Assembly (NCBI GenBank): GCA_964431555.1
Contig: CAYSJW010000005.1
Coordinates: 15,215-79,214, forward strand
Source of the DNA: an uncultured Gammaproteobacteria bacterium
GTDB taxonomy: Bacteria > Patescibacteriota > Microgenomatia > UBA8517
DNA: 64,000 nucleotides
Direction of reading: 5' to 3'
The first letter of the stretch is position 1. The number at the start of each line of letters is the position of its first letter. Position numbers and translations under genes: made by a program. Positions 10,005 to 28,157 of this stretch are shown piece by piece. Below the pieces are notes generated by a model. That model did no database searches and was not told where the DNA came from. It saw nothing but the letters and a program-made list of their open reading frames with translations.

Positions 10005-10140
10005 GCTTACGATTCCGGCCTTGACCTATTTTCGCATAGGGTTGCCCCTACACTATCGTCGGCGCTGGAGCGTTTTACAGATCTTGTTCGAAATGGAAAA
10101 GTGTAGTCCCACTCCGCTCACAAGACCGGAATCCTAAGCA
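10005..10140 (-). rRNA. rrf: 5S ribosomal RNA.
   Basis: Reverse complement contains CGAACAAGATCTGTAAAACGCTCCAGCGCCGACGATAGTGTAGGGG...CCCTATGCGAAAATAGG (compare E. coli CCGAACTCAGAAGTGAAACGCCGTAGCGCCGATGGTAGTGTGGGG...CCCATGCGAGAGTAGG). Helix I pairs TGCTTAGGATTCCGG with CCGGAATCGTAAGCA. Ends are approximate. Confidence 0.85.
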
Positions 10141-10297
10141 CAAACAACTTGCTCCCTGACAACTAAAGAGGAGGTCGTAAAAGAATTTTTTCGACCTATT
10201 CGTAGAAGGTAAGCTTAACATCTTACGATGCTTCCACTTCCTTTCGAACAATCTGGTATTCTGCCAGAGGTCTATGACGAGTTCTAATCTTGGGGTG

Positions 10298-10330
<33 letters not shown>

Positions 10331-10535
10331 CTTAGGAATGTAGCTACCCGGCGATGCCGCTGACGCGACAACCGGCACACCAGGGATTCCTCCAGCCTGG
10401 TCCTCTCGTACTGAGGCCAGCTCCCCTCAAAACTCATAACGCTTCCACCGGATAGAGTCCGACATAATTGTTACAAAGGCCGGGTTTTTATACCGGCTCC
10501 CTATGTCGCCATAGGGGTCCGACTATATCTTCTCT

Positions 10536-11304
10536 ACACAAAGTATAGAGTCTGGCGTATAGTCTGTGAGGATTCCAAACTAGAATGATTTTAACATCTG
10601 TCGCTTAGAGTACTTTCTCTTCCGAGTATTCATTGAATAAGAAATATCTAAGATATTCTTCATTCCTTCCCTAGTAAGATGCTTTCCTGACTCAACTAAC
10701 TTTAAAACTTGTTTAAATTTATAAAAAGCATCTCTTTTAATAAAAAGTCTTTTATCAAAGAAAGGAATAATTTTATGCAACAGACTAGATAAATCCCTTA
10801 CTACAAAAGCAAGTGATTTATCGTTTTTATCTGATGAACTATTTTGTCTTATGTAACCACATTGTAATCTATCCTTAAGAGATTCCAAAACCTTTCTGCC
10901 GGAAGGGTTCTGTGAAACCTTAAAAAAATAGATTACCTGCCAGCCATATTTTGTTTCAGAAGAAGGGACAACTCCTATATAAAACATTCCCTCTCCTTCA
11001 ACAAAACCAATAAAATAGTCGTCAGAAAAATACATATCTAGCTTGGTCTTTCCTGCTGGTTGACTCAGAGTTAAGATTTTCACCAGTACATAGATTATAT
11101 ACTAGTACTTAACTATTTAACGAGTGTTTCCAGCATACAGTGGCAAACTAAAATAAATTCAGTTCACCATCCCGTACTTAATAGTACTAGGACCAGATTT
11201 ATCTCAAACTGGGGGTTTGAGCCTGTAGAATACAACAGAGTCCTCAAGATCCAGAACCTCTACAGGAAAGACAGCTCGGTCATCTTGATATGTCTAACAA
11301 GATC
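10536..11304 (-). mobile_element. Group I intron in 23S rRNA domain V carrying a LAGLIDADG homing-endonuclease ORF.
   Basis: 23S collinearity breaks immediately after ...CGTCGCGAGACAGTT (plus coordinate ~11305). It resumes at ~10535 with the GTCGGACCCCTATGGCGACATAGGG region (compare E. coli GTTCGGTCCCTATCTGCCGTGGGCG). The intervening ~770 nt contains ORF 10580..11083. Confidence 0.85.
10580..11083 (-). CDS. LAGLIDADG-family homing endonuclease (intron-encoded).
   Basis: [39 protein letters not shown] carries the LAGLIDADG-type motif [10 protein letters not shown]. 167 aa, embedded in the 23S intron. Confidence 0.9.
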
Positions 11305-11362
11305 AACTGTCTCGCGACGTTCTGAACCCAGCTCACGTACCGCTTTAATGGGCGAACAGACC

Positions 11363-11393
<31 letters not shown>

Positions 11394-11968
11394 CGGTGAG
11401 CCGACATCGAGGTAGCGAACCGCACCGTCGATATGGACTCTCGGGTGCGACTACTCTGTTATCCCCGGGGTAGCTTTTATCCGTTAAGCTCCGCCCACAC
11501 CCATTGTGGATCGGAGGATCACTAAGACCTGCTTTCGCACCTCAAGGCACCATTCAGTGCCCTGCCAGATACCAAATGGCATCTGGGCTCCTGCCGTCAC
11601 AGTCGCAGTCAAGCTGGCTTATGCCTTTGTACATAAAGCACGATGTCCATCCGTGCTAAGCCAACCTTTGTACCCTTGCGTTACTCTTTGGCAAGGTACC
11701 GCCCCAGTAAAACTGCCCATCTAGCACTTTCCCCTGATTCGTTTGCAGAACCATAAGGTAAGTCTTGCCACGCTCCAAAGGGAGGTGTTTCACTTTCCCA
11801 GATACCATAGAGTACCTGGTCCCTCCTACTCTAAACAATTGGTTCGCACAAAACAATGCCAAACTGCAGTAAAGCTCCACGGGGTCTTTTTGTCCGGGTG
11901 GAAGTAGGCCGCGTCTTCACAGCCATCGCAATTTCGCCGAGTAGAGGCTCGAGACAGTTGCTAACTCG

Positions 11969-12002
<34 letters not shown>

Positions 12003-12933
12003 GAGGGACTTCGCTACCGTAGAACAGTTATAGTTACTGCTGCCGTTTACCGGAGCTTGAGTTCGGTGCACATAGCACACAACCATCAACTTCCACACCA
12101 GCCTTATTAGTCGTTAGCTGATTGTCGGTTGTTGAAAGTTGTGCGCTATGCACACCTCCCCTTAACTTACCGGCACTGGGCAGGCGTCAGCCCATATACC
12201 TTACCTTTCGGTTTTGCATGGACCTGTGTTTTTGTTAAACAGTCGGTTAGCAATCGTTAGCTGCGCCCTGAAGCCAGCTTGCGCATGCTTCAGGGAGGAC
12301 ATATCCCTAAGTTACGTCCAGCTTTTTTGCCGAGTTCCTTGAACCTCTTTCTCTCGCTCGCCTTAGTATTCTCTACCAGCCCACCTGTGTCGGTTTGTGG
12401 TACGGCTTGCTTTGAATCTCACTGCGAGCCTTTTTTGAAAGACTGAATAGGATGAAATTGCCCCGCTTTCGCAAGACTTTGCATAACTGCTTGATTAATC
12501 GTTTCAGCGGATTTCCCAACTGCCACTATCTCACAGCTTACACCGGACTTCACGTACCGGCTTCAACTATCCAACCTTGTCAGCCCCCAGCTAGTGTGCG
12601 TTGCACACTTGGGCGATTCAAAACAAATACAGGAATTTTAACCTGTCATCCATCAGCTACCCCCGCAATGCAGGGCTCACCTTAGGTGCCGACTAACCCG
12701 TCGCGGACGAACCTCCCGACGGAAACCTTGGGCATTCGGCGGAGGGGATTCTCACCCCTCTAGTTCGCTACTCATACCGGCATTCTCACTTCCAAACGCT
12801 CCACCACACCTTACGGTATGACTTCACCGCATTTGGAACGCTCCCCTACCGGGGATACCAAACGGTACCCCCCTCTGGCTTCGGTATCATTTTTAATCCT
12901 CGATAAATCTTCGGCGCCGTAAACCATCAACCA

Positions 12934-12992
<59 letters not shown>

Positions 12993-13505
12993 ATGATTTT
13001 CGACTTCCTTTCAAACTTAAAATGAATTTAGAGACCTTAGCCGAGAGTCTGGGTTGTTTCCCTCTCGTCTTATCAGCTTAGCCCGATAAGACTGTCTAGC
13101 AAGTTTTCGCACATCATTATTCGGAGTTTGGTTGGAATAACTCGGTTGCCCTCGCTATCCCATCCAGTAGCTCTACCACTAATGTACCTACCTTGCCACG
13201 GTGCCTATACACCTTTCGGGGAGAACCAGCTATCTCCAGGCTCGATTGGCATATTACCCCTATCCACAAGTCATCCGAGCTTATTGCAACAAACACCGGT
13301 TCGGGCCTCCCCCTAGATTTCTCTAGGGTTCACCCTGCTCATGGATAGATCGCTCTGGTTTCGGGTCTCGCCACACTTTCTAGGGCACTATTCGTACCCA
13401 TCCAAAATGGAATTCGCTTTCGCTACGCCTCCGTTCTTTAAAGAACTTAGACTTGTGAAAATGAGGCGAACTCGCCGGTTCATTCTTCAATAGGCACGCT
13501 ATCAC

Positions 13506-13640
13506 ACCTCGCTTCACTCGGTGTTCAAAAAATCAAAATGAAAAAGAATAAATATTAAAGAATTAATAAACTTTTATCTCTTAAATACTCATCTTACACT
13601 TTTCATTTTGAAGTATGAATTTGAGCGTCGAGTGAAACGA
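13506..13640 (-). other. AT-rich hairpin insertion (intervening-sequence-like expansion) inside the 23S rRNA 5' half.
   Basis: ~130 nt of ~20% GC inside otherwise ~50% GC rRNA, with an inverted repeat CAAAATGAAAAAG...CTTTTCATTTTG. It is flanked by conserved 23S sequence. Confidence 0.5.
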
Positions 13641-13709
13641 GATGCTCTAGCGGTTTGTCCGCAAACAGTTTCAGGTTCTATTTCACTGGGCGTCCCGCCC
13701 TTCTTTTCG

Positions 13710-13741
<32 letters not shown>

Positions 13742-14650
13742 TTTCAAGCATATTTAGCCTTGGAGGATGGTTCCCCCAGATTCCCACAGATTTTAGACCG
13801 TGGTACTTAGGATACTTCTAGAGGTTGGTTTAGTTTCACATACGAGGCTTTCACTCTCTATGGCCTTCTATTCCAAGACGTTCTGCTACCAAACCAACTC
13901 CCACAATGAAGTCCTGCAACCCTCTTTCGTTCCCGAAGAAACAAAAGAGTTTAGGCTATTGCCGTTTCGCTCTCCACTACTAAGGCAATCACTATTGTTT
14001 TCTTTTCCTCACCCTACTAAGATGTTTCAGTTCGGATGGTTCCCTCCTCGCACCTTATAGGTACTCACAACAATCAACAATCAACCAACAGATATTGTAA
14101 GTTCCGCGGAGCGGAACACGTCGACTGTTAACTGTAGAGAGTACCTCTTAGGGTACGGGTAGTCGCTTTTGAAAGCAACTGGGTTTCCCCATTCGGACAC
14201 CGCCGGATCACTGGATCGTGGCTCCTACCCGGCGATTATCGGAAGCCTTGCCCGTCCTTCTTCGGTGCTTGAAACCAAGGCATCCACTGTCTGCGTTAGT
14301 AAAAGACTTTTACGACCTTGTCCGTAATAGCTTGTACAAAGTACACGCATACGGACCTACTTCCCCAAATTAAAAGATCAATATTGGGGATATCTTTCCT
14401 CTTTAGTTGTTAAGGAGCAAATCAATTTTAGATATAAGATCTAAGATACAGGATACAAGATTTAAGATTTCAGTTCAAAAAATCTTACTTCCTACTTCCT
14501 TCATCTTACATCCTAATTCCAACAACTAACCACTCACAACCCACAACTCACCACTTATTTCCCACTACCCATATATTCTTGATTCTTGGTAAACGGAGAC
14601 TCGTGATCAAAAAGCCAAATCACCAATCTCCGATTAGCAAAAATCAAATG

Positions 14651-14724
14651 TGGACCCGGAGGGAATCGAACCCTCTACCTCCTCATTGCAAATGAGGTGT
14701 TCAAACCTTGTAAACTTCGGGCCC
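14651..14724 (-). tRNA. tRNA-Ala (anticodon UGC).
   Basis: Reverse complement GGGCCCGAAGTTTACAAGGTTTGAACACCTCATTTGCAATGAGGAGGTAGAGGGTTCGATTCCCTCCGGGTCCA. The anticodon loop is TTTGCAA, with G3:U70 and an A discriminator. It lies upstream of 23S as expected for a spacer tRNA. Confidence 0.88.
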
Positions 14725-14954
14725 TAACCCCCACGGATCTTTTAATTTTTTTAATCTGCAAAACAAAAAAACCCGCTCATTAAGGCGGGTTGACTAAACA
14801 AAAGGAAACCTCTTTCACCCACAAAAGGGGGTATTAAGATTGGTTTCTTTGTGAATTTTCATTATTTTCATCAAGCAACTCGCCTTAAGGCAAGGACAAT
14901 TATATTACACTCTGTCAAGACAAGTCAACCACAATTTTTTTCAAAATATCTCCC

Positions 14955-15839
14955 CTAATTGATTGATTCTTGAATAATTTCTCTGGCTTGATTAATAGGT
15001 AATTTTTCGTTTTTTACATTAACCTCATCAGGCAAATTCTTTCCCCAAATTTCCAAAATTCTTTGTCTATCATTTTCATCCGTAACTAACTGCTTAAATC
15101 TCTCCCTTACAAAATTAACGAAAAAGTATGGATTAACTTCTGCAAAAGGATTTTCAATCCCATTTTCATATATCAATCCTAAAAGTCTCCTCTCATTTTG
15201 ACTAAATAAATCATTACCAATCTGATCCATGACTCTCATAAAAACACTAAATGGAGATTTTTGGTCTTCAGGCATGTATTTCGTTTCGTTTATAAGATGT
15301 TTGACAAATTGATTATACCTTTGCTTTTTTTCCTCGCCCAAATTGGAATTATTAATTAAAAATTCAGCAATAGCTTGACTCCTTTCTTCCGCAACTTTGC
15401 CTGTAAAAACATCTTTACCAGCAGTATAGTTGGGAAGGAAAGAAGGTTTAATATTGCCACTTCTTACCGAGAGAAAACTTATTATATTACCAGTATCGTG
15501 GGTATAGATTGCAAACATTATAGCTTCAGACAATTCATCTTCCGGAATAATTAAGTCTGGATGAGAATTATTCCACAAATCCAACGACTTATACAATTCT
15601 AACGGATCATCATCTCTAGAACATCCATCCATATACTTTTTTACAGCACCCACTACTGCTTCAATGTGGCGTCTATTATGAAAGGAGTCTTTATTATTCC
15701 ATACCTCGCTATCAAAAGTATCATGCCACGTAAGACATTTTTCCCAAATTTCCTGGGGCGATAATTGCTCCTTTAATCTACTAGTCTCATTCTCAACAAT
15801 TACAGTTTGAATTTCCTGATTTTCAAGAACATCTGTCAT
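14955..15839 (-). CDS. HD-domain (metal-dependent phosphohydrolase superfamily) protein encoded between tRNA-Ile and tRNA-Ala of the rRNA operon.
   Basis: A 294-aa ORF with H...HD motifs (FHNRRHIEAVV; AIYTHDTGNI) and later acidic residues. It is on the same strand as, and between, the two spacer tRNAs. Confidence 0.55.
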   Translation of the reverse strand: MTDVLENQEIQTVIVENETSRLKEQLSPQEIWEKCLTWHDTFDSEVWNNKDSFHNRRHIEAVVGAVKKYMDGCSRDDDPLELYKSLDLWNNSHPDLIIPEDELSEAIMFAIYTHDTGNIISFLSVRSGNIKPSFLPNYTAGKDVFTGKVAEERSQAIAEFLINNSNLGEEKKQRYNQFVKHLINETKYMPEDQKSPFSVFMRVMDQIGNDLFSQNERRLLGLIYENGIENPFAEVNPYFFVNFVRERFKQLVTDENDRQRILEIWGKNLPDEVNVKNEKLPINQAREIIQESIN

Positions 15840-15939
15840 TTAATAACCCTTGATATATATGATATATACTTCATTTTACCAACCTGGAAAATAAAATTAA
15901 AACAAATCTCCTTTATTTATAAAAATAGTTCAGTTTTTG

Positions 15940-16012
15940 TGGGCGGCCATGGAATCGAACCATGCACCTCTTACTTATCAGGTAAGCGTTCTAACCGATG
16001 AACTAGCCGCCC
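15940..16012 (-). tRNA. tRNA-Ile (anticodon GAU).
   Basis: Reverse complement GGGCGGCTAGTTCATCGGTTAGAACGCTTACCTGATAAGTAAGAGGTGCATGGTTCGATTCCATGGCCGCCCA. The anticodon loop is CTGATAA and the cloverleaf is canonical. Confidence 0.9.
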
Positions 16013-16181
16013 GAAAATATACTAAACTGTTTACTACAAATAAAATTTTACATTTATTTTTTTCCAAAAACAACCCACCACCCACTACTCACAACCCACA
16101 ACTCACTACCCACCACTCACAACCCACAACTCATATCTCACCCCCCCTTCTTTTACTCTGACTTAAATGTATAATTAGATT

Positions 16182-16880
16182 ATGGAAAAACTAACCACAC
16201 TTGCCCTCAAGCTTCCCAGAAACACTCAGGTTACGCCGGAAGCGGCAAAAACCTTCCTTTCTGCACTCATCCAAATTAACTTTATCTCTACCTTTAAAAA
16301 ACTTTTCGGCACTAAAAGAAAACCTTTAGCTTTAGAGATTGCTCTTATTAATCAACAAATCTACTTTTTGATAACTACGGATAACGAACTTATTCCCTTT
16401 ATAGAAACACAGATTACCTCAAATTACCCCTTGGCGATAATCGAAAAGACAAAAGACCCTCTTGAAGTAATTTCTTACAATTTAGTCAACATTTTCCTTC
16501 AAAAAGGAAACTATTATCCAATTGCCACATTTGAAAATTTTCAAGAGGTTGACCTACTCTCTTCAATACTTTCTGTTCTTGCGAAATCCGATCCAGACGA
16601 AGTCACAGTCATTCAATATGCACTTGAATCAACAAATAATTCTTGGCAAACAAAAGGAGCGGGCTTTGCAAAAAAAGGAACAAAAAACCCCGATGGTACT
16701 TATTCCCCAAGATTTGATTTAAATATCATAAACGAAAAAATTTCTTACCCAGGTTTCAGATGTAGCATCCGAATTATTAGTAATGCAAATAAAACCCTAA
16801 ATGAATTGTCAAGTGCCTTTGGTGTCTTTAATAGATCCGACGGAAATTACTTTATTTCTCAAAGACCTAATTTTTTTTAA
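16182..16880 (+). CDS. Hypothetical protein.
   Basis: A 232-aa ORF with ordinary composition for this genome; no recognisable motifs. Confidence 0.45.
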   Translation: MEKLTTLALKLPRNTQVTPEAAKTFLSALIQINFISTFKKLFGTKRKPLALEIALINQQIYFLITTDNELIPFIETQITSNYPLAIIEKTKDPLEVISYNLVNIFLQKGNYYPIATFENFQEVDLLSSILSVLAKSDPDEVTVIQYALESTNNSWQTKGAGFAKKGTKNPDGTYSPRFDLNIINEKISYPGFRCSIRIISNANKTLNELSSAFGVFNRSDGNYFISQRPNFF

Positions 16881-17027
16881 TAATAGGAGTATAAAAACTA
16901 AACCAACCGGAAAGTAAAATATACTCAGAACCTTCATCTATTACCAGCTTTTATCAGAGGTAATAATATAACACAAGGCAACTTCATCCCAAAAGGAAAA
17001 TGTTAACAAATTTTACCTTCTTATCCT

Positions 17028-18317
17028 TTATTTCCCACCCCTACCTTTTCCTCGCTCGGAACGAGGGGGATGGTTTCCTGGAGTCTGTCCACGCTCATCG
17101 TTCGAGGGGTTTCTATTATTACTATTTCCTGGATCGCACCCTTCAGGACCATTACCAATACCTTGATTACATTTTCGCTTATTTTCCCCAGGAGTTTCCG
17201 GTGTTGGCTCTAATGTTGGCTCCGGTGTTGGCTTAGGAGTAGACTCGGTAGTTGGAATGCCCTGTTGCGGACCATATTCCTCGCCTCTAGGGACCTCTCG
17301 CACAACACCACCTACAGGGACAAATCTCCCACCATCAACACCACAAGGACTCCCATTTGAATCCCCACTATCTTGATCTCCAATAACTTTTTCTAGCCCT
17401 CGGTTATAAAGGTCTGGAGTATTGGCAAGAGAGAAGACCTCAACCCTTAGACCTTGACCGTCAGTAACCGCCGCTAATAAAACGGGGTTTCCGGAATCTT
17501 TTCCACGAAAAATTTCTTCTTCCCTTCCGTTACCCGGTTTTTCCACACCTCCTCGAAAACTAACTCTTGCCACATTCTCAAGCTGAGGACCAAAAAGAGG
17601 ATAGCCCAGATATGTTTCATTGGTATCAAAGTCAGGACCAATAGTCCACCATTTCCCATCAACATTCTGGGGTTGAATAGCAAGATCGTCATAGGCTATC
17701 CTTTCAAATAATCTCCTTCTTTCTTCCTGAACAGCAGGATGAAAAGGATCTTTACCTTGTAAACTCAAGAAACCATCAACATAAGCAAGAAGCGCTTTAT
17801 CAATCTCTTTTGCTTCTACAATTGCCCAGCCTCTACTGTAACCGTCATTACCTTTTCTTAGCAAGTCACCTCTACCTAGCAAATCCGAAGTTCTCAAATT
17901 CGCCAAATCGTTAGGAGTAAAGCCAAGACCCTGCCCATCATTTTTAAGATCAAAATCCAAACCTCTTTCCCACAAAGCGCCCTTAACTCCCTTAGGACCT
18001 CCAACAGGAGCGGTTAATTGGTGAAACATTCTATCATGCATATTAATCCTAGCATCCACGGCTTCCCTCAGAGGATTCTCTCGGAGTTCCCCATTAAGAT
18101 CTTCTAGTCTTCCCCTAAGATATTTTCCAAACGTTTCAGGAGTTACAATATTTATACCACCATTTTCTACTGCTGCAAAATTAACACCCGCTGGATGGCT
18201 TGAAATCGGATATTCGCGAGACGCTTCTGGACCTTCAACGAATAGAGCACCACCAGCCACAGCTGCTAGTCTTAAAAAATCTCTTCGTGATAATCGTGGT
18301 AATCTGTCGACTGCCAT
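17028..18317 (-). CDS. Tat-signal (twin-arginine) exported hypothetical protein with a Pro/Thr-rich C-terminus, compositionally atypical (~48-50% GC).
   Basis: N-terminus MAVDRLPRLSRRDFLRLAAVAGGALF (S-R-R-x-F-L motif plus h-region). The C-terminal tail is TPKPTPEPTLEPTPETPG-rich. Local GC is clearly higher than the flanking ~33%. Confidence 0.6.
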   Translation of the reverse strand: MAVDRLPRLSRRDFLRLAAVAGGALFVEGPEASREYPISSHPAGVNFAAVENGGINIVTPETFGKYLRGRLEDLNGELRENPLREAVDARINMHDRMFHQLTAPVGGPKGVKGALWERGLDFDLKNDGQGLGFTPNDLANLRTSDLLGRGDLLRKGNDGYSRGWAIVEAKEIDKALLAYVDGFLSLQGKDPFHPAVQEERRRLFERIAYDDLAIQPQNVDGKWWTIGPDFDTNETYLGYPLFGPQLENVARVSFRGGVEKPGNGREEEIFRGKDSGNPVLLAAVTDGQGLRVEVFSLANTPDLYNRGLEKVIGDQDSGDSNGSPCGVDGGRFVPVGGVVREVPRGEEYGPQQGIPTTESTPKPTPEPTLEPTPETPGENKRKCNQGIGNGPEGCDPGNSNNRNPSNDERGQTPGNHPPRSERGKGRGGK

Positions 18318-18567
18318 ACCTTCCTTTTAATTGTCTTTACTATACCAAAAAGGAGGCTTCTTGTCAACTACAGGATGTTTTTTACTCAAAACAAGTATAA
18401 CTCACAACATGATATCTCTTAGGCATTTGCACAAGAGGTAGTACAAACTGCTCTTACCTCCTTGTCTTGCTGTTAAATCTTTACCCACCCTCCCCCAAGC
18501 TGTTTTTTATTTTCTTCCGAGAGGCTAGGCTATTTTCAGGCAAAAGTGTTATCATAAATAAAGCCCA

Positions 18568-19332
18568 ATGAATAACCACAAAAAGTTATTTATCTACACA
18601 ATTCTAATAACTACAGCCTTCTTTCTAACTCGACTAATAAATCTGACCTTACAACCTATTTTTTGCGATGAAGCTATTTACATAAACTGGGCCCAAAAAA
18701 CAGAGAACAATTTTAAGCTAAACGCTTTTTTGCCTTTAACAGATGGTAAAACTCCACTTTTTATGTGGGCAACTTCATTAAGCCTTAAAATTTTCAAAGA
18801 TCCTCTTTTTGCTGGAAGAATAGTCTCAGTTCTTGCCGGTTTTTCTTCTCTCATCGCCGCTTTTTTTCTCGGAAAAGAAATTTTCAAAACAAAAACAGGA
18901 ATTATCTCTGCTATTCTGCTAACTTTTCTGCCGTTTACTCTGTTTTTTGACAGAATGGCCCTAGTTGATTCAATGCTTGCCACTTTTTATCTTTGGTCCT
19001 TAGCGCTTGCCTTAAAAATATCTCAAAAGCCCAAGGTCAAAACAGCCGTTCTTTTAGGCTTAAGTTTGGGAGGAGGGATATTAACCAAAACCCCGGGAAT
19101 TTTTGCTTTTATCTCTTTACCCTTCATACTCATTGCAACCAACTTAAAAGATCTTAAAAAGGTAGCACTTAATCTTGGTCTTTCCGCTTTTATTGGTTTC
19201 TTTATTTTTAACCTGCTTAGAATTAGCCCCTATTTTGAAAACTTGTCAAAAAGAGACTCTGGGTATTACTTTCCCATAAGACATATCCTAGAAAACCCCA
19301 CAAATCCACTAACTGGAAATACAATAGGGTAA
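18568..19332 (+). pseudogene. N-terminal fragment of a GT-C fold (GT39/GT83, ArnT/PMT-like) membrane glycosyltransferase, truncated by IS insertion.
   Basis: Polytopic membrane N-terminus with FCDEAIYINWAQ (DE..Y loop motif of PMT/ArnT-type transferases). The ORF ends after 254 aa with a TAA lying inside the IS inverted repeat (GGGTAAAGT), whereas family members are ~450-550 aa. Confidence 0.5.
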
Positions 19333-20184
19333 AGTCTAATTATTCGGACCTTAAATGTTGATTTAATAACATAAATAAGCGTTTTTCTTGCTCTTTGAAA
19401 TTTTAATTTCTGTGATTGTATCGCCAGATGTATTCTCCAAGATATAAAGGCAGTCTTTGTTGACAAATTCCACCTCTAGCCGCTAGTTTCCTTTTCAAAT
19501 ATCCCCAAAATCCTTCAAGGCCATTGATGTGATTTCCTTTTTTATTAGAATACTCTTTTTTACTATGATCAACAAGTCGATGGACATAACCTTTGGATGC
19601 TAATCCAGTGTATCCTCGCCAAGTATCAGAACAGATGGTTGAACCTTTGCTAACTTGTTTTTCAATTAAGGGTTGTAAATCTCTGGCTTCTGTATCAGGA
19701 ACAATCTCAGCGAATATCTTTCCTTCCCGGCACAAAATACCAAAGACTGGTTGTTTAATAGTCCCAAAACCCCTGCGATTTTTACCATATTTTATGCAGT
19801 CTTTTTGCTTTCTATTCTTCATTTGACCACCCAAGTAAGTCTCATCTACTTCTACTATTCCCGAAAAGATGTCTGGCACATCTTTAGTCATTACTATTCT
19901 TAACAGAATTAATAATTTCAGAAGTTTGTATTTGGAAATGTTAACCCTTTCAAGGATAGTGTTGGTTGAATGTTCTAACACAAACTCAGAAATTACTTTT
20001 TTAACAACCCTTTTATTAAGTCTTAGAAGCTTCTTTTTCAGAGTAAATGACTTTCGACAAACTAAACAACGAAGACGTCCATCTTTTAATCTCCAGAACC
20101 TTTTGGTATTACTACATTGTAAACATTTCGTCATATTCCTAATGTGATTTTATCCCATTAGGTCTGAAATATTGAACTTTACCC
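19327..20184 (-). mobile_element. IS1595-family insertion sequence (~858 bp) with ~24-bp terminal inverted repeats.
   Basis: Left end GGGTAAAGTCTAATTATTCGGACC (19327..19350). The right end reverse complement is GGGTAAAGTTCAATATTTCAGACC (20161..20184). It encloses transposase ORF 19403..20134. Confidence 0.8.
19403..20134 (-). CDS. IS1595-family (ISXO2-like) DDE transposase.
   Basis: N-terminal zinc ribbon CLQCSNTKRFWRLKDGRLRCLVCRK and a C-terminal region ...HINGLEGFWGYLKRKL...YLGEYIWRYNHRN typical of DDE_Tnp_IS1595. Confidence 0.85.
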   Translation of the reverse strand: MTKCLQCSNTKRFWRLKDGRLRCLVCRKSFTLKKKLLRLNKRVVKKVISEFVLEHSTNTILERVNISKYKLLKLLILLRIVMTKDVPDIFSGIVEVDETYLGGQMKNRKQKDCIKYGKNRRGFGTIKQPVFGILCREGKIFAEIVPDTEARDLQPLIEKQVSKGSTICSDTWRGYTGLASKGYVHRLVDHSKKEYSNKKGNHINGLEGFWGYLKRKLAARGGICQQRLPLYLGEYIWRYNHRN

Positions 20185-20446
20185 TATATTATGAAAGCTT
20201 TCTAGTCAATGATAACTAAAATATTCAAAACATATCTTCAAAGCACCCCTTGTTAGAAGAGAAAAAAATTTCAAGCGGGATCGTGGGACAAAAAACCTCC
20301 TTGTAAAACTCTTGGTGGAGGGTACAGAGATGGTAAAAAATAGCAGTTAGCAATTAGCAGTTAGTTGTTAGTTGTTAGTAGTTAGTAGTTAGCAATTAGC
20401 AGTTGGCGGTTGGTAATTAGCAGTTGGTTTTTAGTAAAATGCAAAT

Positions 20447-20719
20447 ATGAGCGGTTTTGAGGATTTGAGGATTTATAGACTTTCTTTGGAGGGCTGCAAG
20501 ATAATTTACAAGATTATTTTAAAAGACCCTATTAAAAAAGATTACTCTTTAGTTGATCAAATAAAAAGGGCAGTTATGTCGATTGTCGCTAATATTGCTG
20601 AAGGTTATGGACGCTACACTAAAAAAGACCGCTCTCAGTTTTTAACATATTCAATTGGATCTTGTAATGAAGTACTAGCCTTTTTGGATATAATCAATAC
20701 TATTTGTAATATTGAATAA
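20447..20719 (+). CDS. Four-helix-bundle protein (TIGR02436, '23S rRNA intervening-sequence protein' family), short form.
   Basis: LRIYRLSLEGCKIIYKI...AVMSIVANIAEGYGRYTKKDRSQFLTYSIGSCNEVLAFLDI has the NIAEG signature. It is a paralog of the ORF inside the 16S IVS. It is flanked by inverted heptamer arrays at 20341..20427 and 20811..20880. Confidence 0.75.
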   Translation: MSGFEDLRIYRLSLEGCKIIYKIILKDPIKKDYSLVDQIKRAVMSIVANIAEGYGRYTKKDRSQFLTYSIGSCNEVLAFLDIINTICNIE

Positions 20720-21109
20720 TATTGATGTATCAAAAGAAAAGAAAGTTTTTCTTTCTCTAGGAAAACAAATCTATTCATTCCGTAAAGCCCTTCAGAATTC
20801 ATAGTATTAACTCACTGCTTACAACCAACTGCCTACTACCTACTACCAACTACTTTACTGCTATCTGCCCACTGCCTAACGTATTACCGTTTCTCTACCC
20901 TCTATCAAGGGAAAATTACGCCAAGGTATTGGCGAATCAATCCAACAAAGCCCTACGGCGGAGTTGGAAAATACCCGGAGCTGGCCGAACCAGTTTTAAA
21001 TCCTCTTTCTGTTTGCCAAGAGCTGGCACCAAGGTCGCTAAGCGATCGCGCAGCTCCCCACTAGTAAAGTGGCAATTGAAAGAAGAAAACCAAGCAATAG
21101 GAGGTTTGA

Positions 21110-21531
21110 TAATGAACACCAAACGGATGTTTTTACTGGGTATAGTTGCCCTGTTGGTGGTCGCATTCGCGACCGGTACGGCATTGTCAAGCGGAGCCGC
21201 CGACATTACCGTTGTTTATGAGGACGACTATATGGTCGTCTATCAAGACGGTGATTTCGGTAACCGTATTGCGCTGAATAAAGCGGGAGGCGTGGATGCC
21301 TACTGTCCGTGCGAGGACGTCTGTCCTTTAACCGCACAGGGTGCTCCGGCAACCGCAACGCAACCGCCGCAGACAACGGCAACCAGCCAACCCCCATATA
21401 ACGGGGTGTGGATTCATCACGAATCCCAGGGCGTTGGCGACCAAAGCTGGACGCGCTGCATGCCACCGAGTGCCTGGAATGGACACAGTCCCCACGAAGG
21501 GGACTGGCTCGGTGGAGGTTGCTACCGCTAA
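21110..21531 (+). CDS. Secreted Cys-rich hypothetical protein in a GC-rich islet.
   Basis: MNTKRMFLLGIVALLVVAFATGTALSSGAAD signal peptide, then PATATQPPQTTATSQPP and several Cys/Trp. The region 20880..22080 is ~52% GC, and the tracked ORF begins further upstream at 20929. Confidence 0.5.
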
Positions 21532-22185
21532 TCGTCATTCGGGGTAACCCCAACACTAAGTCAGTTGGAAACTGACGACAAGGGTTACCCCACCCCCTCT
21601 CCCTTGTACCAAGTTTTACTTGGTGAGAGGCTCATCGATCGATCGAAAGATGGGTAAAACAAGGAAAGCGGGGCTCGCGAAATGGTAATTTTGCCCTCAA
21701 GACGCTTGCGTCTTTCGTCTTACGCAGACGATTAATGAGTGGCGATTTAGCCAATTTGCGAGTATGCGGACTGTTTATGAGTTGTGTTTTGATTTTAGGA
21801 CGAAACGATAACCGTAAGGTTATCAAATCAAGTAGCCAAAAAGCTACAAATCCAAAAAATCAAATCCAACCCCCAAAATAGTCCCCCCGCAATAGTTAGT
21901 TTTCGACCAACAGTCGAACTGAAGAGATCTTGTCCGATAATTATCGGAATGCGATCGAAACTATTAAACAAATTAATTAGTGTGTCGTAACTGATCCCAG
22001 CACAGAACTTACTTGCTCCCGAGTACTACGTGCTCGCGTCACAAGAGCGTTTATGCGGGACAAGTGAGACCGAAAGGTTGAAACTAAAAAAATAGTTTAG
22101 TATTTAGTTATTAGTGGTTAGTATTTAGTTTAAATTACACCTTAACAATTTATTCATTGACCAAAAATCACGGAAGTGGTTTAAT

Positions 22186-22671
22186 GTGGATATGGGAAAA
22201 GGCAAAGTGTTGACCAAAAAAGATGCTGAATTTTTAAAACAGGAATTCAAAAGTGTCTTTGCAACCAAAGAAAACCTTAAGATTTTAAAAAAAGAAATCG
22301 CCAACAGGGTGACAAGGTCTGTTGTTCCTCAAGTTACAAGGTCAGTGGTTCCTGAAGTTACAAGATCTGTCGTCCCTGAAGTAGCTAAGGCTGTCGTTCC
22401 TGAAATAGCGAAGGCTGTTGTTCCTGAAGTAACTCAAGCAGTTATCCCTCAAATTAAATCCGTCGTAAAGCTTGTAATTTCTGGGGAGTTAACAGAACAA
22501 GAAGAAAAGTACGAAAAGAAACTTGAAGAATTTAAGAGCGAGTTCTTTGACAAGGTTGACCTGATTTTAAAAGAAATAACAACGGTACAGGAAGAAAGAC
22601 CTTTGATTGAAAGTCGACTTGAAGCCCTTGAAAAAATTCATCCGCAAGGTAAACACGTTCTTTCATCCTAA
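22186..22671 (+). CDS. Tandem-repeat / coiled-coil hypothetical protein.
   Basis: Seven tandem 27-bp (9-aa) repeats VTRSVVPQ/VTRSVVPE/VAKAVVPE..., followed by a charged predicted coiled-coil C-terminus. Confidence 0.55.
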   Translation: MDMGKGKVLTKKDAEFLKQEFKSVFATKENLKILKKEIANRVTRSVVPQVTRSVVPEVTRSVVPEVAKAVVPEIAKAVVPEVTQAVIPQIKSVVKLVISGELTEQEEKYEKKLEEFKSEFFDKVDLILKEITTVQEERPLIESRLEALEKIHPQGKHVLSS

Positions 22672-23028
22672 TCACCCTTTAAAACCAAATCCCGTGTGTT
22701 TTCCTACCCGCAATGCCTGAAGCATAGCCAATGAAAACTGTCTGTGCAGGATTTGAAAAACGATTTTAATGGACCTGCACTAATTATTCAACTTGCTACA
22801 AATAAAAAAATTATTTAAATTTGATTGAGTAGGTTTATAATTAAAACATAGCTACCCAAAAGCGTGGGGGTAACCAAAGGTAAAAAACATAACCTAAAAA
22901 ATTATGTTACCTCTAAAGCAAAGTCCTGTACCGAATGGTATGGGACACTCCGCCGTCCTTGGGTAAAATCAAGGAAAGCGGAGAAACCAAAGGTTGCCTC
23001 CACACTTTTGGGGATCCAAGATTAGGAT

Positions 23029-23679
23029 TTAGTTTTGCGAAGATAAAATTGACTCAATTTTATTTCTGTTTTTTTCATTATCATCAGCATTAACTACTAA
23101 AATTACTTTTTCTATTTTTGAATCAGGTCTATCTTTAAAATAGTCTTTGATACCTCCAATAATTGATAATAATCGCGGCCTAAAAGTTTCCGGAGTAATC
23201 TCTCCAAATAAAGGAACTGCCACCGTCTTCACTTCAGCAGTACTTTCAGCCACCTCCAAAGAATTTCCAACTGCCAACCTCACTGGATCTTGACTTTTAC
23301 TTTCTCCAGTATTTGATATATTTGTATGAATTATTTTCTTAACCGAAGATCCTTCTAATCCCACCCCAGTTGCCACCGAATATCCCGGAGGAATATGAAC
23401 TTCACCTTTTAAGCCTATTTCTCTTAAACTTCCTTTAAAATGACTTTCTGCCTCTTTCGCCTTTCTAAATGGATCATCCCCAAATTTGATAATCAGTAAT
23501 TCTCCTTCCAAAGAAGTACTAAAAAAACTCCCATCATACGGGCAAACTAAAGCATCAGCTGTAACTTCATCTATTCTTCCAAAACTAATACTAACCTTAT
23601 CCCTCCAAATAGGAGCCTCTAAACGAATTGAACCATCTCCCGTCTCTCCGTTTCCCATACTATATTCTCTCACATTCAC
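23029..23679 (-). CDS. Hypothetical protein.
   Basis: 216-aa ORF with coding-like composition and no secure family assignment. Confidence 0.4.
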   Translation of the reverse strand: MNVREYSMGNGETGDGSIRLEAPIWRDKVSISFGRIDEVTADALVCPYDGSFFSTSLEGELLIIKFGDDPFRKAKEAESHFKGSLREIGLKGEVHIPPGYSVATGVGLEGSSVKKIIHTNISNTGESKSQDPVRLAVGNSLEVAESTAEVKTVAVPLFGEITPETFRPRLLSIIGGIKDYFKDRPDSKIEKVILVVNADDNEKNRNKIESILSSQN

Positions 23680-24222
23680 CTAAATTCACAAAATCACCAA
23701 TTCCTCAACACCGGGAGTTGATCAGCTTCCAACAATGGGTCTTTTAGATAAAGTGAGTTGTTGGTTGTTAGTTGTTAGTTGTTAGTTGTTAGTGGTTAGT
23801 GGTTAGTTATTAGTTGTAAGAGGTATGGAATGAGGAGTGAGTGGTGGGTAGTGGGTAGTGGGTTGTGGGTTGTGAGTAGTGGGTGGTGAGTTGTGATAAA
23901 TAGATATAGGAAGTTAGAAGTTAGTAGTTAGTATCTGGGAGTTGAGGAAAATAAACCCAAAACACAAAATTCAAAATTGTAATAAAAATTTAAAAATTAT
24001 AATTATTAATATAAAGTAGAATCATTAACTATTAACCATAAATTAATAATAATTTACAGGTTTTGAAGTTTAGTATAAAGCTTTCAAGATTTAGCTTTTG
24101 AGACACAAATATTCTCCATAATAAAAGACCAACGCCATATAAAGATTCTGAATAGCAATTTTATTCACTACAAAGTATTTTGACTGGAAAAATAGTTCAA
24201 TACTATAATATCAAATTACAGC

Positions 24223-24792
24223 ATGAATCCGGAAAGAAAAAGGCAAACAACCTTAATTTCCACAGAGCTTGGGTTCACAGTATTATGGTTATATCTCGCA
24301 TGTTTAAGTGGTTGTGAGGAAAATCGACAACAACTCTCAACATTAACTCCTCCTCAACCACCAGGTGAATCATCCAAGGGTCGAGACCTTCTTCCAACTC
24401 TCCCATCAGTAAAGCCAGAAACAAGAATGGAAGAACTAGTCAACCAAATTGAGGAAGAAGGCTATAATTGTGAGCCGATTCCAAAAGGTAGTTGGCTAAC
24501 CCAAGAACTAAGAAAAAGAGGAGCTCCAGGGATCGATGAGGGACCATACAAAATTATCCGAAGAGGTGGTAAAGTAGAAACCTTTGAAACTTATGATCAG
24601 CTTCCTAACCTAGTTTATCCAGGTGAGCAATTTTGCATCAAAGAAAATGGCAGTTCCTCGATTATCCCCGGAAAAAATCATGGAGTTATTTTTGAATGGA
24701 ATAATATGCCTTTTGTAAGAACACAAAATAGGGCTTTCCAACAAAAAAGTCAAGAAATAACATCTAGGCTCCGCGCAAAACAAAGGTTCTAA
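24223..24792 (+). CDS. Putative lipoprotein.
   Basis: N-terminal h-region followed by the lipobox LACLSGC. 189 aa. Confidence 0.5.
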   Translation: MNPERKRQTTLISTELGFTVLWLYLACLSGCEENRQQLSTLTPPQPPGESSKGRDLLPTLPSVKPETRMEELVNQIEEEGYNCEPIPKGSWLTQELRKRGAPGIDEGPYKIIRRGGKVETFETYDQLPNLVYPGEQFCIKENGSSSIIPGKNHGVIFEWNNMPFVRTQNRAFQQKSQEITSRLRAKQRF

Positions 24793-25079
24793 AATCTCAA
24801 AAAATCCCCTAGTCAAATTTATATTTTGACATCCAAAATATGACTGGAAGCGGTCCCCGTTTTATCACAGTCAAAACGGCGAACTTAAAAACTGGGTGCT
24901 ATCACCCCTCTTTCGCAAAAAAGCAAAAAGAGGGTTCCCGTGAGAACTCCTTAGAAAGGAGGTGATCCATCCGCTCCTTCCAGAACGGATACCTTGTTAC
25001 GACTTAATCCTCATCGCTGGTTTCACCTTCCCCTCCGACTCGGAGGGTTCGGGTGCCCCCAACTTTGCTGACTTGACGG

Positions 25080-25951
25080 ATTGCACTTCATCGAAGTTAT
25101 CGTGCGTTCCCACTAAGCGAGCGGCTTTCCCGCACTTAGCGAGCCGTAATGCTTATTCATCTCCAGCTTCAATTTCCTAATAAAAGAGAGTTCTTTTTCA
25201 GAGAGCTTACGCACATCCTGCCTTCCCTTAACTATCTCGGCTATTTGGCAAAAAGCATTAAAACTTTCCGCTTTATAGCCCAAGAGTTTATGTCGTTTGA
25301 AAAAGGGTATTATGACATTGTAAATATCATCCCTTTTTGTAAATTCAAAGACCCAAGCAGGAAGACGACCCACGCGCCTAGCACTCTTTTGATAAACAGT
25401 CCCTACGTTGAAAAATTGCTGGACCTTTAAAAGCAATGGTTTATTTCCTTCAGCTTGAGTAATGAAAAATCGTAAATCGATTCTGTTATCAGCTCGAATA
25501 GATACAAGGAAACATCCCTCACCTTCTGTCAATCCAACAACATATGAAGCTGGAAGCATTACGTATTTCCCTTCGATAATGCCAGTATACGAATGTTTTC
25601 AATATACTGTCAATTATCTACTATGGAAATGCTGACTTCCTAAAAGGCAATTACTTCGTTCCTTTTAGGATCTCCGTGGGTCATCATATATTCTATTCCC
25701 GGCATGAACAAATTGCTTTTACAAACTGGCTTCCTTCTGACCGCCCAGCAGAAGTCGCCAAGCATTTTCATTTTGTCCCTGCCGTTTGCCTCAGGCCCTC
25801 CGTTCTATCGGTTACCCGTAAAAGCAAAGTTTATACTTTGCAATAGAACTGCCAATTTTTTGGCTACATTTCAAGTTGGTAAAGGTTAACCATCAAGAAA
25901 TGGTAAGATTTTAACTTACTAGAATATATGACTGCCACGCGCGCATTTATT
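25080..25951 (-). mobile_element. Group I intron in the 16S rRNA 3' domain, inserted after GTACACACCGCC, carrying a LAGLIDADG ORF.
   Basis: 16S collinearity stops after ...GGGTCTTGTACACACCGCC (plus 25952) and resumes at CGTCAAGTCAGCAAAGTTGGGGG (plus ~25079). The ~870-nt insert contains ORF 25113..25559. Confidence 0.85.
25113..25559 (-). CDS. LAGLIDADG-family homing endonuclease (intron-encoded, in 16S).
   Basis: MLPASYVVGLTEGEGCFLVSIRADN carries the LAGLIDADG-type motif VVGLTEGEGCF. 148 aa. Confidence 0.9.
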   Translation of the reverse strand: MLPASYVVGLTEGEGCFLVSIRADNRIDLRFFITQAEGNKPLLLKVQQFFNVGTVYQKSARRVGRLPAWVFEFTKRDDIYNVIIPFFKRHKLLGYKAESFNAFCQIAEIVKGRQDVRKLSEKELSFIRKLKLEMNKHYGSLSAGKPLA

Positions 25952-26414
25952 GGCGGTGTGTACAAGACCCGAGAACGTATTCACCGCGACTTTGCTGATT
26001 CGCGATTACTACCAATTCCGCGTTCATGAGGGCGAGTTGCAGCCCTCAATCCCCACTGAGAAGCCGTTTGATGGGATTAGCTCCGCGTTACCGCTTGGCA
26101 ACCCATTGTCGGCTCCATTGTAGCATGCGTGTAGCCCTGGACATAAGGGCCATGCTGACTTAACGTCATCCCCGCCTTCCTCCAAGTTTAACTTGGCAGT
26201 CCCGTATGAACAATCTAACATACGGCAGGGGTTTCGTTCGTTACCCCACTGAAGGGAACACCCCACGGCACGAACTTACGATAGCCATGCAACACCTGTC
26301 CTACCATCCAACTTTCGAAGGATCTGCTACTATTTCTAGTAACATAAACGGTAGGATGTCAAGTCCAGGTAAGGTTCTTCGGTCCGTCTCGAATTAAACC
26401 ACATGCTCCACTGG

Positions 26415-26446
<32 letters not shown>

Positions 26447-27359
26447 TAAACTTGCGTTCGTACTCCCCAGGCGGCTCGCTTAACGCGTTAGCTTGCGCCC
26501 CACGCCCAAAGGCGTAGGGCTAGCGAGCATAGTTTACGGCTAGGACTACAGGGGTCTCTAATCCCTTTCGCTCCCCTAGCTTTCGTTCCTCAGCGTCAAA
26601 CAGTTCATAGTTACCTGCCTTCGCCCTCGGTGTTCCTTGCGATATCAACGGATTTCACCCCTACACCGCAAGTTCCGGTAACCCCTAAATGTTTCGATTT
26701 CTTCAGTATTACCTCCCTTTCCGAGGTTAAGCCCCGGTCTTTGAAAGATAACTTAAAGAAACGCCTACGAACTCTTTACGCCCAATAAATCCGGACAACG
26801 CTTGCACCCTCTGTATTACCGCTGCTGCTGGCACAGAGTTAGCCGGTGCTTATTCTCCGTTCGGTCTCCCTCACGGCAAAAGTGGTTTACAACCCGAAGG
26901 CCTTCATCCCACACGCGGCGTCGCGGCGTCAGACTTTCGTCCATTGCGCACGATTCCCAGTTGCTGCCACCCGTAGGTGTATGGGCCGTGTCTCAGTCCC
27001 ATTCTGGGGGGTCACGCTCTCACGTCCCCTACCCGTCGTAGCCTTGGTAGGCCATTACCCTACCAACTAGCTGATAGGCCGCAGGCTCCTCCTTCGGCGG
27101 ACAGTTACATCCTTTGCTGCGTAGCAGCCAACCATCAACTAACAACAATCAACTCACAACTCTTATATTAGTTGTCTTTTAATTGTTGAAGCTCACAAGA
27201 TGAGCGTGTTGAAAGCTCGCTGCTGCGCAGCGTATGCGGTATTAGCCCCGCTTTCGCGGGGGTATTCCCCACCAAAGGGTAGATTCCTACGTGTTACTCA
27301 GCCGTTCGCGACTATCCGCAGGACAGAACATTCAACAATAAACAAGTAACTGGTTACAA

Positions 27360-27722
27360 CTAACTCTTCTTAAGATACTTCGAAAAACCTCCAAGTTGAT
27401 CAGCAATCTGCTTAGTTTCCTTTATCAACTCATTTTTTAAAGTAGAACTTATAAGTTTAGATTCAAATGCTATATCAATTCCAGCAGTAGTTTCATTTAT
27501 AGAACCTAATGAGTTGTTTAAATACATATTCAATTCTTTATCAGAGTCTTTGCCAGATCCTTCTGCGATATTAAGAACTACAGAGAGACTACTCCTTCTT
27601 ATCTGATCCGCTAATTCCCTATGTTCTCTCGGGAAAGTTTTACTTATCTCAACAACTGACAAATAAAATCTTTTTGCATCTTTATAAACTTTAAACCTCA
27701 TAAATCGAAATGTTTTATCCAT
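27360..27722 (-). CDS. Four-helix-bundle protein (TIGR02436, rRNA intervening-sequence protein) encoded inside an IVS in the 16S rRNA V1 region.
   Basis: MDKTFRFMRFKVYKDAKRFYLSVVEISKTFPREHRELADQIRRSSLSVVLNIAEGSGKDSDKE has the family-defining NIAEG motif. The ORF sits ~70 nt into the 16S, between inverted flanks GGTCCGCAGGAC / GTCCTGCGGA that form the IVS stem. Confidence 0.85.
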   Translation of the reverse strand: MDKTFRFMRFKVYKDAKRFYLSVVEISKTFPREHRELADQIRRSSLSVVLNIAEGSGKDSDKELNMYLNNSLGSINETTAGIDIAFESKLISSTLKNELIKETKQIADQLGGFSKYLKKS

Positions 27723-28157
27723 ATTCTTTGTTAATAATTAATAGTTACCAGTCGCAAGTTACAAGTTGATCTGTTCGGTCCTGCGGACCGTCCCACTTGC
27801 ATGCTTAAGGCACGCCGCTAGCGTTCGTCCTGGGCCAGGATCAAACCCTCAAATAAGTGACGAGTTTATACCCTAGTTGCGTATAAACAGCAACCAAAGT
27901 GTAGTTCGTCTATACGCCGGGTGTCAAATGACACCCGATCAGGTACCGAATGGCACCTGACTTCCAGTCATATTTTGAATGTCAAAGAGCAAAAATCAAA
28001 AAACCCACCAGATGGTGGGTTAATTTTAAGTTCCCGAATTAACGGAAAACCATCTGGCTCTTATTTCTTCATAAACTAAACTCAAATCAACTAAATGTAT
28101 TGAGCATATATAGTATATCAAAAAAATCAAACGAGTCAATTATAAATTTTTAGAATT

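Follow-up and report, generated by a model that had tools for sequence, protein, structure and literature searches.

How did the genes for 16S and 23S rRNA of one bacterial locus come to lie far apart on the same strand, with protein genes on both strands between them? The question is raised by a 64,000-nt stretch of contig CAYSJW010000005.1 (hereafter the window, meaning the whole stretch that was analyzed), which appears to stem from a Woesebacteria-like member of the Patescibacteria (ultra-small bacteria). The initial annotation of this DNA, made from the sequence alone, described the region as a ribosomal operon split by serial insertion of mobile or foreign DNA, and as an integration hotspot. 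Our analysis leads to a different reading, in which we have good, if not full, confidence: the rRNA locus was split ancestrally, and the 9 kb in the window represent the expanded, decaying state of a spacer that is already present in relatives, and not a fresh break of an operon. This corrects the appealing picture of an operon caught while being broken.

All positions are those of the 64,000-nt stretch (Table 1), and rRNA and tRNA genes were placed with Rfam and ARAGORN. All rRNA and tRNA genes of the region are on the minus strand. As annotated, the 16S gene and the tRNA-Ile-23S-5S block share this strand, with 10.6 kb between the 16S 3' end (24956) and the 23S 5' end (14310), and the interval between tRNA-Ile and 16S (16013-24957, 8.9 kb) holds genes on both strands; every open reading frame (ORF) listed initially is present, as are the GC-rich islet, the arrays of heptamers, and the IS1595 element. 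The 16S 3' end had also been placed correctly, and the gene does have its own processing stem (24825-24850/27961-27986), which comprises 26 nt with 25 Watson-Crick pairs and one G-U pair on the rRNA strand. A further stem of 24 nt (22 Watson-Crick and 2 wobble pairs) flanks the 23S gene, and the related locus L128 (related loci and contigs carry L numbers) has homologs of both stems. Judging from the opposite-strand genes between them and from the separate processing stems, 16S and 23S are most likely transcribed as separate units. Three assemblies from separate samples are 99.9-100% identical over the whole arrangement, the sole difference being the copy number of a 12-nt repeat in ORF C. Since these assemblies are independent, an assembly artefact is excluded as the source of the arrangement.

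Unlinked rRNA genes, defined by a spacer of >1500 bp, are common and phylogenetically conserved in Patescibacteria (Brewer et al., 10.1101/705046). They occur in 27 of 34 closed genomes of the Candidate Phyla Radiation (CPR), where the rRNA genes of a "type D" locus share a strand, lie >2 kb apart, and enclose genes of the opposite strand (Lui, Nielsen & Arkin 2021, PMC8172020). A known unlinked rRNA locus of this sort is what the window contains: the 10.6 kb lie between the nearest 16S/23S ends, the rRNA genes are on the minus strand, and the plus strand carries ORFs B, D, F, G, H, and J.

A coupling protein gene at the rRNA locus

The first ORF of the interval, ORF B, had been annotated as a hypothetical gene. 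The ORF is indeed present, but the label does not hold, as it is a truncated gene for a type IV coupling protein (T4CP) of the VirD4/TraD/TrwB-like kind. Its identity was revealed by a chimeric protein query consisting of A, B, I, J, and G, in which the matches of B swamped the others; a chimera without B was then run on the representative library. ORF B is 60-76% identical to residues 1-231 of T4CPs of 704-843 aa, with 76% for P0106, and a tblastn search with P0106 matches over residues 1-231 only. Full-length homologs carry DUF8128, TrwB_AAD_bind, DUF87, and TraG-D_C, and several of them are named as Candidatus Woesebacteria. Residues 232-708, which hold the P-loop ATPase/TrwB_AAD_bind/TraG-D_C region, were not found anywhere in the window by tblastn. 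Because the match stops at residue 231 and residues 232-708 are absent from the window, ORF B is, on this sequence evidence, a remnant of an ancestral resident T4CP gene and no functional member of the family. Loss of this T4CP copy is plausible, since Patescibacteria genomes have about two T4CP homologs each, most of them far from virB4, and a strain in culture was noted not to need one of these genes (PMC12102498). A truncated T4CP of this kind will get annotated as a hypothetical protein.

Relatives were found by scanning metagenome contigs with an alignment of the 232 N-terminal T4CP residues, and their loci were annotated by blastn, ARAGORN, and tblastn. Loci with a T4CP at least 58% identical were taken as close relatives, to which the following counts refer. 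The contigs of the two closest full-length T4CPs read Rho-RadA-S1-5S-23S-tRNA-Ala-(2.6-2.8 kb)-tRNA-Ile-T4CP, with T4CP on the opposite strand, and the order 5S-23S-tRNA-Ala-tRNA-Ile-T4CP (opposite strand)-spacer-16S was found in about 45 relatives. The tRNA-Ile gene precedes the T4CP gene in 46 of the 49 loci with at least 400 nt upstream, the 23S gene is present in 30 of the 31 with at least 3 kb upstream, and 16S is on the rRNA strand in 12 of the 14 with at least 8 kb downstream. A comparison with relatives for an intact 16S-Ile-Ala-23S operon had been proposed along with the insertion scenario; no such operon was found among these loci, which have the T4CP-containing order instead. Since this order places T4CP between tRNA-Ile and 16S, the split would be ancestral, with the locus of the clade running 16S, T4CP (opposite strand), tRNA-Ile, tRNA-Ala, 23S, 5S. 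In L104, L128, and L130 a tRNA-Glu/Lys/Gln cluster lies upstream of 16S, as in the window. A full-length T4CP alignment run against the genome collection gave, among the matches listed, mostly distant Patescibacteria with T4CP away from rRNA genes. Among these listed matches are 83 distant T4CP loci (from Levy-, Shapiro-, Roizman-, Gottesman-, Saccharibacteria, and others), only two of which, L010 and L018, adjoin rRNA genes, both with the same order.

The flanks are conserved, and what lies between them varies. Five loci have only 150-190 nt between T4CP and 16S, with 150, 150, 154, and 186 nt among the values. Further loci have 0.25-1 kb (253 nt upwards), 2-3.6 kb, 5.3 kb, or 6.7 kb (6669 nt), and two (L007/L089) exceed 8.5 kb; the tRNA-Ala-to-tRNA-Ile spacer ranges from 212 to 6386 nt. 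Both spacers hold unrelated ORFs in different loci. In the Ala-Ile spacer, L093 has a member of the ThiF family and, after it, a gene that weakly matches RWD (E2-like) (4667-7693), and L005 has a split large serine recombinase beside tRNA-Ile (8411-9494). L124 contributes glycosyltransferases, and L007 Tat-signal proteins as well as large SpaA_2/SdrD_B-like surface proteins. On the T4CP strand, at least seven other lineages carry genes for signal-peptide proteins with a GC content at third codon positions (GC3) that is 0.12-0.24 above that of the adjoining T4CP gene; many of these GC-elevated proteins have PT-rich linkers and some a C-terminal anchor. The T4CP-16S and inter-tRNA stretches might therefore be described as cargo bays, whose content would turn over between lineages.

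In a rough neighbour-joining tree of the 232 N-terminal T4CP residues, the window groups with L005 and L007/L089 as sisters, and short spacers sit on the deep branches L010, L018, and L133. Because the deep branches carry short spacers, a compact 16S-T4CP-Ile-Ala-23S locus is more likely to be the ancestral form, which several subclades would then have expanded. Part of the interval is common to these nearest relatives: ORF I is 49% identical to a 211-aa gene of L007/L089 in the same orientation, J has a 36% homolog, located at the contig end in L007, and the order and orientation of both are as in the window. The homolog of F (48%) is in the opposite orientation. Some of the cargo is thus older, and L007 and L110 likewise share two genes at roughly the identity of their T4CPs.

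Composition and gene content of the interval

As reference for composition we took 35 ORFs located elsewhere in the window (GC 0.358 ± 0.028, GC3 0.294 ± 0.039). Eight of the nine interval ORFs (B-J) have native GC3, i.e., within 2 sd, as does ORF A just outside, and G is the exception. When tetranucleotides were profiled in steps of 1 kb, a single segment, 21001-22000, stood above all 91 of the background (z 4.7). Profiling of GC and tetranucleotides, which had been put forward as a check for foreign DNA, singled out only the G module of ~0.9 kb and found the other interval ORFs native. The supposed GC-rich Tat-exported protein, ORF C, does have a Tat signal and a GC content of 0.450, but it is no compositional oddity: its GC3 is 0.277, and GC is raised at codon positions 1 and 2 only, because the protein is rich in Gly, Pro, Arg, and Ala. 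C is lineage-restricted, with one true homolog, P0002 (51% identity), whose gene is also low in GC3, so a foreign origin owing to high GC was ruled out. The 12-nt repeat at 17197-17233, which codes for the PT-rich tail of C, varies in copy number between samples (429 vs 445 aa).

The GC-rich islet proved to be a true outlier. The one close homolog of G is on contig L142 (62% amino acid identity), in a setting without rRNA genes, and is likewise a GC-rich gene in a low-GC contig. Over 794 nt the two modules have 70% DNA identity. The differences between the two G genes fall on the codon positions at 0.25/0.23/0.54, and thus ORF G is a real gene. The leader (20884-21111) is 75% identical to a stretch of L142 (region 3987-4754) that is non-coding there, with a 35-nt near-identical block, and has 7 compensated pairs in a two-sequence fold; the conserved terminal hairpin after G (21535-21600) shows compensatory changes as well. 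No Rfam match was obtained for the islet at E up to 5, and neither viral contigs nor the other 138 loci contain the leader motif. From these two sequences, the leader is a candidate for a new cis-regulatory RNA. About six protein clusters in the representative library are related to G, and a motif W..CMP..AWNGH is common to G and a 574-aa cargo protein of L093. The islet looks like a member of the recurring GC-elevated cargo class, and not like random foreign DNA.

Other parts of the interval are degraded. The glycosyltransferase (GT-C) gene was found truncated by IS1595 as annotated: the stop codon of ORF D falls within the left inverted repeat of the element, and no continuation of D was found beyond it. 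The element is single-copy within the window; its transposase matches PF12762 (E 2.7e-33, 115.6 bits, cutoff 27) and NF033547 (140.3 bits, cutoff 75), and its terminal inverted repeats (19319-19351/20160-20192, 33 nt) form 26 Watson-Crick pairs. Members of the IS1595 family produce an 8-bp target-site duplication. Reading both flanks gave no matching 8-mer, which fits a later neighbouring deletion or rearrangement, probably caused by the element itself. The four-helix-bundle (4HB) gene between inverted heptamer arrays (ORF F, PF05635; arrays 20341-20437/20818-20854) is also there. It is frameshifted, with helix 4 DVSKEKKVFLSLGKQIYSFRKALQNS in the +1 frame, to 20804, and no intact four-helix frame is present; it is intergenic and outside any rRNA helix, though bracketed by an inverted repeat. 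Degraded genes of the interval are those for T4CP (B), the GT-C protein (D), and the 4HB protein (F), and the window shows what decay looks like at such a locus. The tandem-repeat protein (H, five 24-nt copies), the 216-aa ORF (I), and the lipoprotein (J, lipobox LSGC) were recovered as annotated. Pfam/NCBIfam scans of the interval revealed no integrase or recombinase gene, only the DDE transposase, and no direct (att) repeats were noticed at its boundaries. The idea of an integration hotspot thus survives in part: variable spacers, IS1595, three degraded genes, and the outlier G speak for it, but deviant composition is confined to ~0.9 kb, and integrase and att repeats were not found.

That an intact 16S-Ile-Ala-23S operon in the recent ancestry was broken by serial insertion of mobile or foreign DNA now appears improbable. 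IS1595, two gene fragments, a frameshifted cassette, and a GC-rich islet are what such a history would leave behind, and cargo does vary by lineage; against this, the relatives already have T4CP between tRNA-Ile and 16S, B is the leftover of that resident gene, I and J are syntenic with L007, and GC3 is native in eight of nine ORFs. Relatives with the same order, uniform composition, and vertically inherited genes had been named as what would refute the insertion scenario, and this is in part what was found, in the I/J order and the native GC3.

In an ancestrally split locus, the interval would combine four kinds of material. The first would be the 5' remnant of the ancestral T4CP gene. The second would be genes inherited with the nearest relatives, i.e., I, J, and probably a 4HB cassette, and the third lineage-specific genes of native composition, i.e., C, H, and the GT-C fragment beside IS1595. 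The fourth would be one atypical GC-rich secreted-protein module (G), which would belong to the GC-elevated surface-protein cargo class.

Several points weigh against this reading. The L007 and L005 contigs and the retrieved L089 locus end before 16S, so that the I-J-16S adjacency is an extrapolation there. The direction of gain or loss hangs on the rough neighbour-joining tree of 232 residues. L007 and L110, which are not sisters and whose T4CPs are 76% identical, have in common genes for a 4HB protein (82%) and for a protein of 139 aa (72%), and such common cargo would be equally compatible with a spacer that was once larger and underwent repeated deletion. The search for the rest of the T4CP gene covers the 64-kb window. 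Separate transcription of 16S and 23S is something that we only infer, and a scan for consensus promoters and terminators was no richer than in shuffled sequence.

Heptamer arrays and other ways to read the locus

Degenerate heptamer arrays (ACTCACA/ACAACCC and complements) occur in many intergenic regions of the window, often as inverted pairs. Two of them, 16070-16134 and 23830-23894, form a 65-nt inverted repeat with 57 of 65 Watson-Crick pairs (88%) and a nearly perfect match over the first 33 nt, 7.7 kb apart; this pair is more alike than other array pairs (70-82%). Such a repeat could drive inversion of the enclosed segment, of which only one orientation was seen in the three assemblies. 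In relatives, heptamer arrays lie just upstream of 4HB genes in L110 and L125 and about 170 nt upstream in L007.

We consider it very unlikely that the 7.7 kb between these arrays are one mobile or invertible element that was inserted whole. The repeat is long and similar enough to invite this idea, and its arms enclose the IS and every degraded gene. However, the two genes that border the arms on the inner side (the T4CP remnant by tRNA-Ile, and I by J) are in their ancestral positions, neither integrase nor direct repeats were found, similar arrays exist elsewhere in the window and within 16S, all three assemblies have one orientation, and the nearest relatives have no arrays at those positions. 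Slightly less credible still is a single operon with a long 16S-to-5S precursor, in which the inverted arrays pair in the RNA and loop out the cargo as a giant intervening sequence. 16S and 23S are on one strand, a transcript of the minus strand would allow the array arms to pair, and similar arrays are found around 4HB cassettes and within rRNA insertions; yet such a transcript would run antisense to six of the nine interval ORFs, 16S and 23S each have their own processing stem, and among the mismatches of the 65-nt repeat G-U pairs are not favoured on the rRNA strand (3 vs 2). The missing arrays in the nearest relatives speak against this reading as well. A role of the repeat as mobile-element boundary or as RNA bridge is, for the relatives without arrays there, the single orientation, and the lack of G-U bias, not supported. 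An assembly chimera that brought in the interval or the islet from another organism is suggested by the GC3 of G, 7.7 sd above the other genes of the window, but is next to negligible, as contigs from three separate samples and assemblers agree at 99.9-100% across the interval including G, and the L142 homolog is also a GC-rich gene within a low-GC contig.

An ancestrally split locus was compared with known systems. With the unlinked rRNA genes of the CPR it has in common 16S and 23S-5S on one strand >2 kb apart with opposite-strand protein genes between, homing-endonuclease ORFs in the rRNA genes, and a state that is conserved in the clade. It differs in that the resident gene is identified here as T4CP, which is kept in about 45 relatives, and in that the adjoining cargo ranges from 150 nt to >8.5 kb. 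A literature search found no paper on the identity or conservation of the anchor gene, on the range of cargo, or on a decayed state with three degraded genes and an IS. What the locus adds to the known cases is that, throughout one large clade, the centre of the split is a conserved opposite-strand T4CP gene, next to which the DNA turns over quickly and often codes for surface proteins with a GC content above that of the adjoining T4CP gene. A practical consequence is that, in this clade, amplification from 16S through to 23S will not succeed.

As in tRNA-linked islands and hotspots, conserved flanks (tRNA-Ile, tRNA-Ala, rRNA genes) enclose variable content with an IS and one compositional outlier, and L005 has serine recombinase remnants beside tRNA-Ile. 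Unlike these islands, the window lacks an integrase, att-like direct repeats, and any single island boundary, and its content is mostly native in composition and partly vertical. Intervening sequences of 23S rRNA that contain a PF05635/TIGR02436 four-helix-bundle ORF are known from Leptospira and Coxiella. F resembles them as a PF05635 gene in an inverted repeat, and a second copy lies within helix 6 of 16S; F itself, however, is outside the rRNA genes and frameshifted, and its arms consist of heptamer arrays instead of extending an rRNA helix. Split rRNA loci are also found in reduced genomes such as those of Rickettsia, Borrelia, Buchnera, and Helicobacter (PMC8172020, 10.1101/705046). Here, too, 16S is apart from 23S-5S in a small genome that is probably host-dependent, but no more than about 10 kb separate them, gene order is conserved on a broader scale, and the same anchor gene is found across the clade.

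A more far-reaching idea, which we regard as possible but doubtful, is that the rRNA spacer of Woesebacteria forms a clade-wide anchored cargo bay. The conserved flanks (16S, T4CP, tRNAs, 23S) would serve as homology arms for the swapping of GC-elevated surface- or secreted-protein genes, 4HB cassettes, and other cargo, and G with its conserved, apparently structured leader would be an imported cassette under RNA-level control.

Insertions in the rRNA genes and neighbouring features

Automatic annotation puts both ends of this 16S gene wrongly. The 3' end given by Rfam (25898) was rejected as the edge of an intron of ~860 nt; the 3' exon runs on to ~24956, where it terminates with GGATCACCTCCTTTCT. 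This intron starts after CACACCGCC (about E. coli position 1400). The Rfam 5' end (27399) was likewise replaced by ~27856, and with the 5' end placed there, the 4HB gene at 27360-27722 was ruled out as part of the 16S leader. The 16S gene of L093 has a homolog of this helix-6 ORF at the equivalent position. A further insertion of 93 nt in 16S contains heptamer repeats (27129-27160).

Table 1. Coordinates of features in the window, and of GC-elevated cargo genes in related loci (last rows).
Feature	Position	Strand	Description
5S rRNA gene	10013-10130	-	Rfam RF00001, 63.2 bits
23S processing stem, 3' arm	10149-10172		inverted repeat; pairs with 14397-14420
23S rRNA gene	10191-14310	-	Rfam; exons by blastn with L005 and L018 23S genes
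23S intron	10463-11304		842 nt; LAGLIDADG ORF 10580-11083, PF00961
23S processing stem, 5' arm	14397-14420		pairs with 10149-10172
tRNA-Ala(UGC)	14650-14724	-	Rfam tRNA, 59.1 bits; TTGCA anticodon loop in alignment
ORF A (294 aa)	14955-15839	-	between tRNA-Ala and tRNA-Ile, outside interval; no Pfam/NCBIfam match
tRNA-Ile(GAU)	15939-16012	-	Rfam, ARAGORN
Heptamer array ACAACCC/ACAACTC	16070-16134		TRF; left arm of 65-nt inverted repeat
ORF B	16182-16880	+	remnant: residues 1-231 (DUF8128 part) of ~708-aa T4CP
ORF C (429 aa)	17028-18317	-	Tat-signal secreted protein, PT-rich tail; TIGR01409 21.6 bits (cutoff 16.7)
ORF D (254 aa)	18568-19332	+	5' fragment of PMT_2/GT-C glycosyltransferase gene; PF13231, E 4.6e-19, profile positions 2-147 of 160
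IS1595-family element	19319-20192	-	transposase 19403-20134; 33-nt terminal inverted repeats
4HB cassette	20341-20854	+	heptamer array 20341-20437, frameshifted F, inverted array 20818-20854
ORF F, 4HB gene	20447-20719	+	PF05635 81.7 bits (cutoff 33.8); TIGR02436 75.4 bits
GC-rich module	20884-21600	+	230-nt non-coding leader, ORF G, terminal hairpin
ORF G (139 aa)	21112-21531	+	secreted Cys-rich protein; GC3 0.593, z 7.7
ORF H (161 aa)	22186-22671	+	five copies of 24-nt tandem repeat (octapeptide repeats)
ORF I (216 aa)	23029-23679	-	small family, about 10 clusters
Heptamer arrays AGTTGTT, AGTGGGT	23756-23933		23830-23894 is right arm of 65-nt inverted repeat
ORF J (189 aa)	24223-24792	+	lipobox LSGC; convergent with 16S; about 12 clusters
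16S processing stem, 3' arm	24825-24850		inverted repeat; pairs with 27961-27986
16S rRNA gene	24956-27856	-	Rfam plus remapped ends; three insertions
LAGLIDADG ORF in 16S intron	25113-25559		PF00961
4HB ORF in 16S (120 aa)	27360-27722		PF05635; within ~450-nt intervening sequence at helix 6
Heptamer arrays, all	14430-14565, 16070-16134, 20341-20437, 20818-20854, 22096-22129, 23756-23933, 42100-42289, 59598-60250
GC-elevated cargo genes downstream of T4CP	L007 8588-10531, 13928-15199; L093 13639-15363; L100 8782-9687; L110 15627-16208
GC-elevated cargo genes downstream of T4CP, continued	L117 12374-13555; L118 12372-13271; L130 13810-14550

ORF A belongs to a large family, with matches to more than 100 clusters (formed at 50% identity) in the representative library, the best at 49% identity. 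It has an H...HD-like motif (RRHIEAV...YTHDTGN) and may represent an uncatalogued family of HD-type hydrolases. As to what I and A do, searches of PDB and NCBIfam yielded nothing beyond a hint of a macro domain in I, which was not significant.

Regarding the tRNA genes, a tRNA-Pro(agg) of 91 nt that ARAGORN reports at 14650-14740 was ruled out by alignment with the tRNA-Ala(UGC) genes of L005, L007, L093, and L115. The tRNA-Ile(GAU) gene retains its place between tRNA-Ala and T4CP, but its orientation differs by lineage, as seen when L018, L098, L100, L103-L105, L107, L108, L114, L117, L118, L127-L130, L138, and L140 are compared with the window. Where tRNA-Ile is on the T4CP strand, it usually lies 15-102 nt upstream of T4CP, and about 0.3-0.85 kb upstream in L103, L104, L105, and L114. 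On the rough T4CP tree, several independent flips of tRNA-Ile are required.

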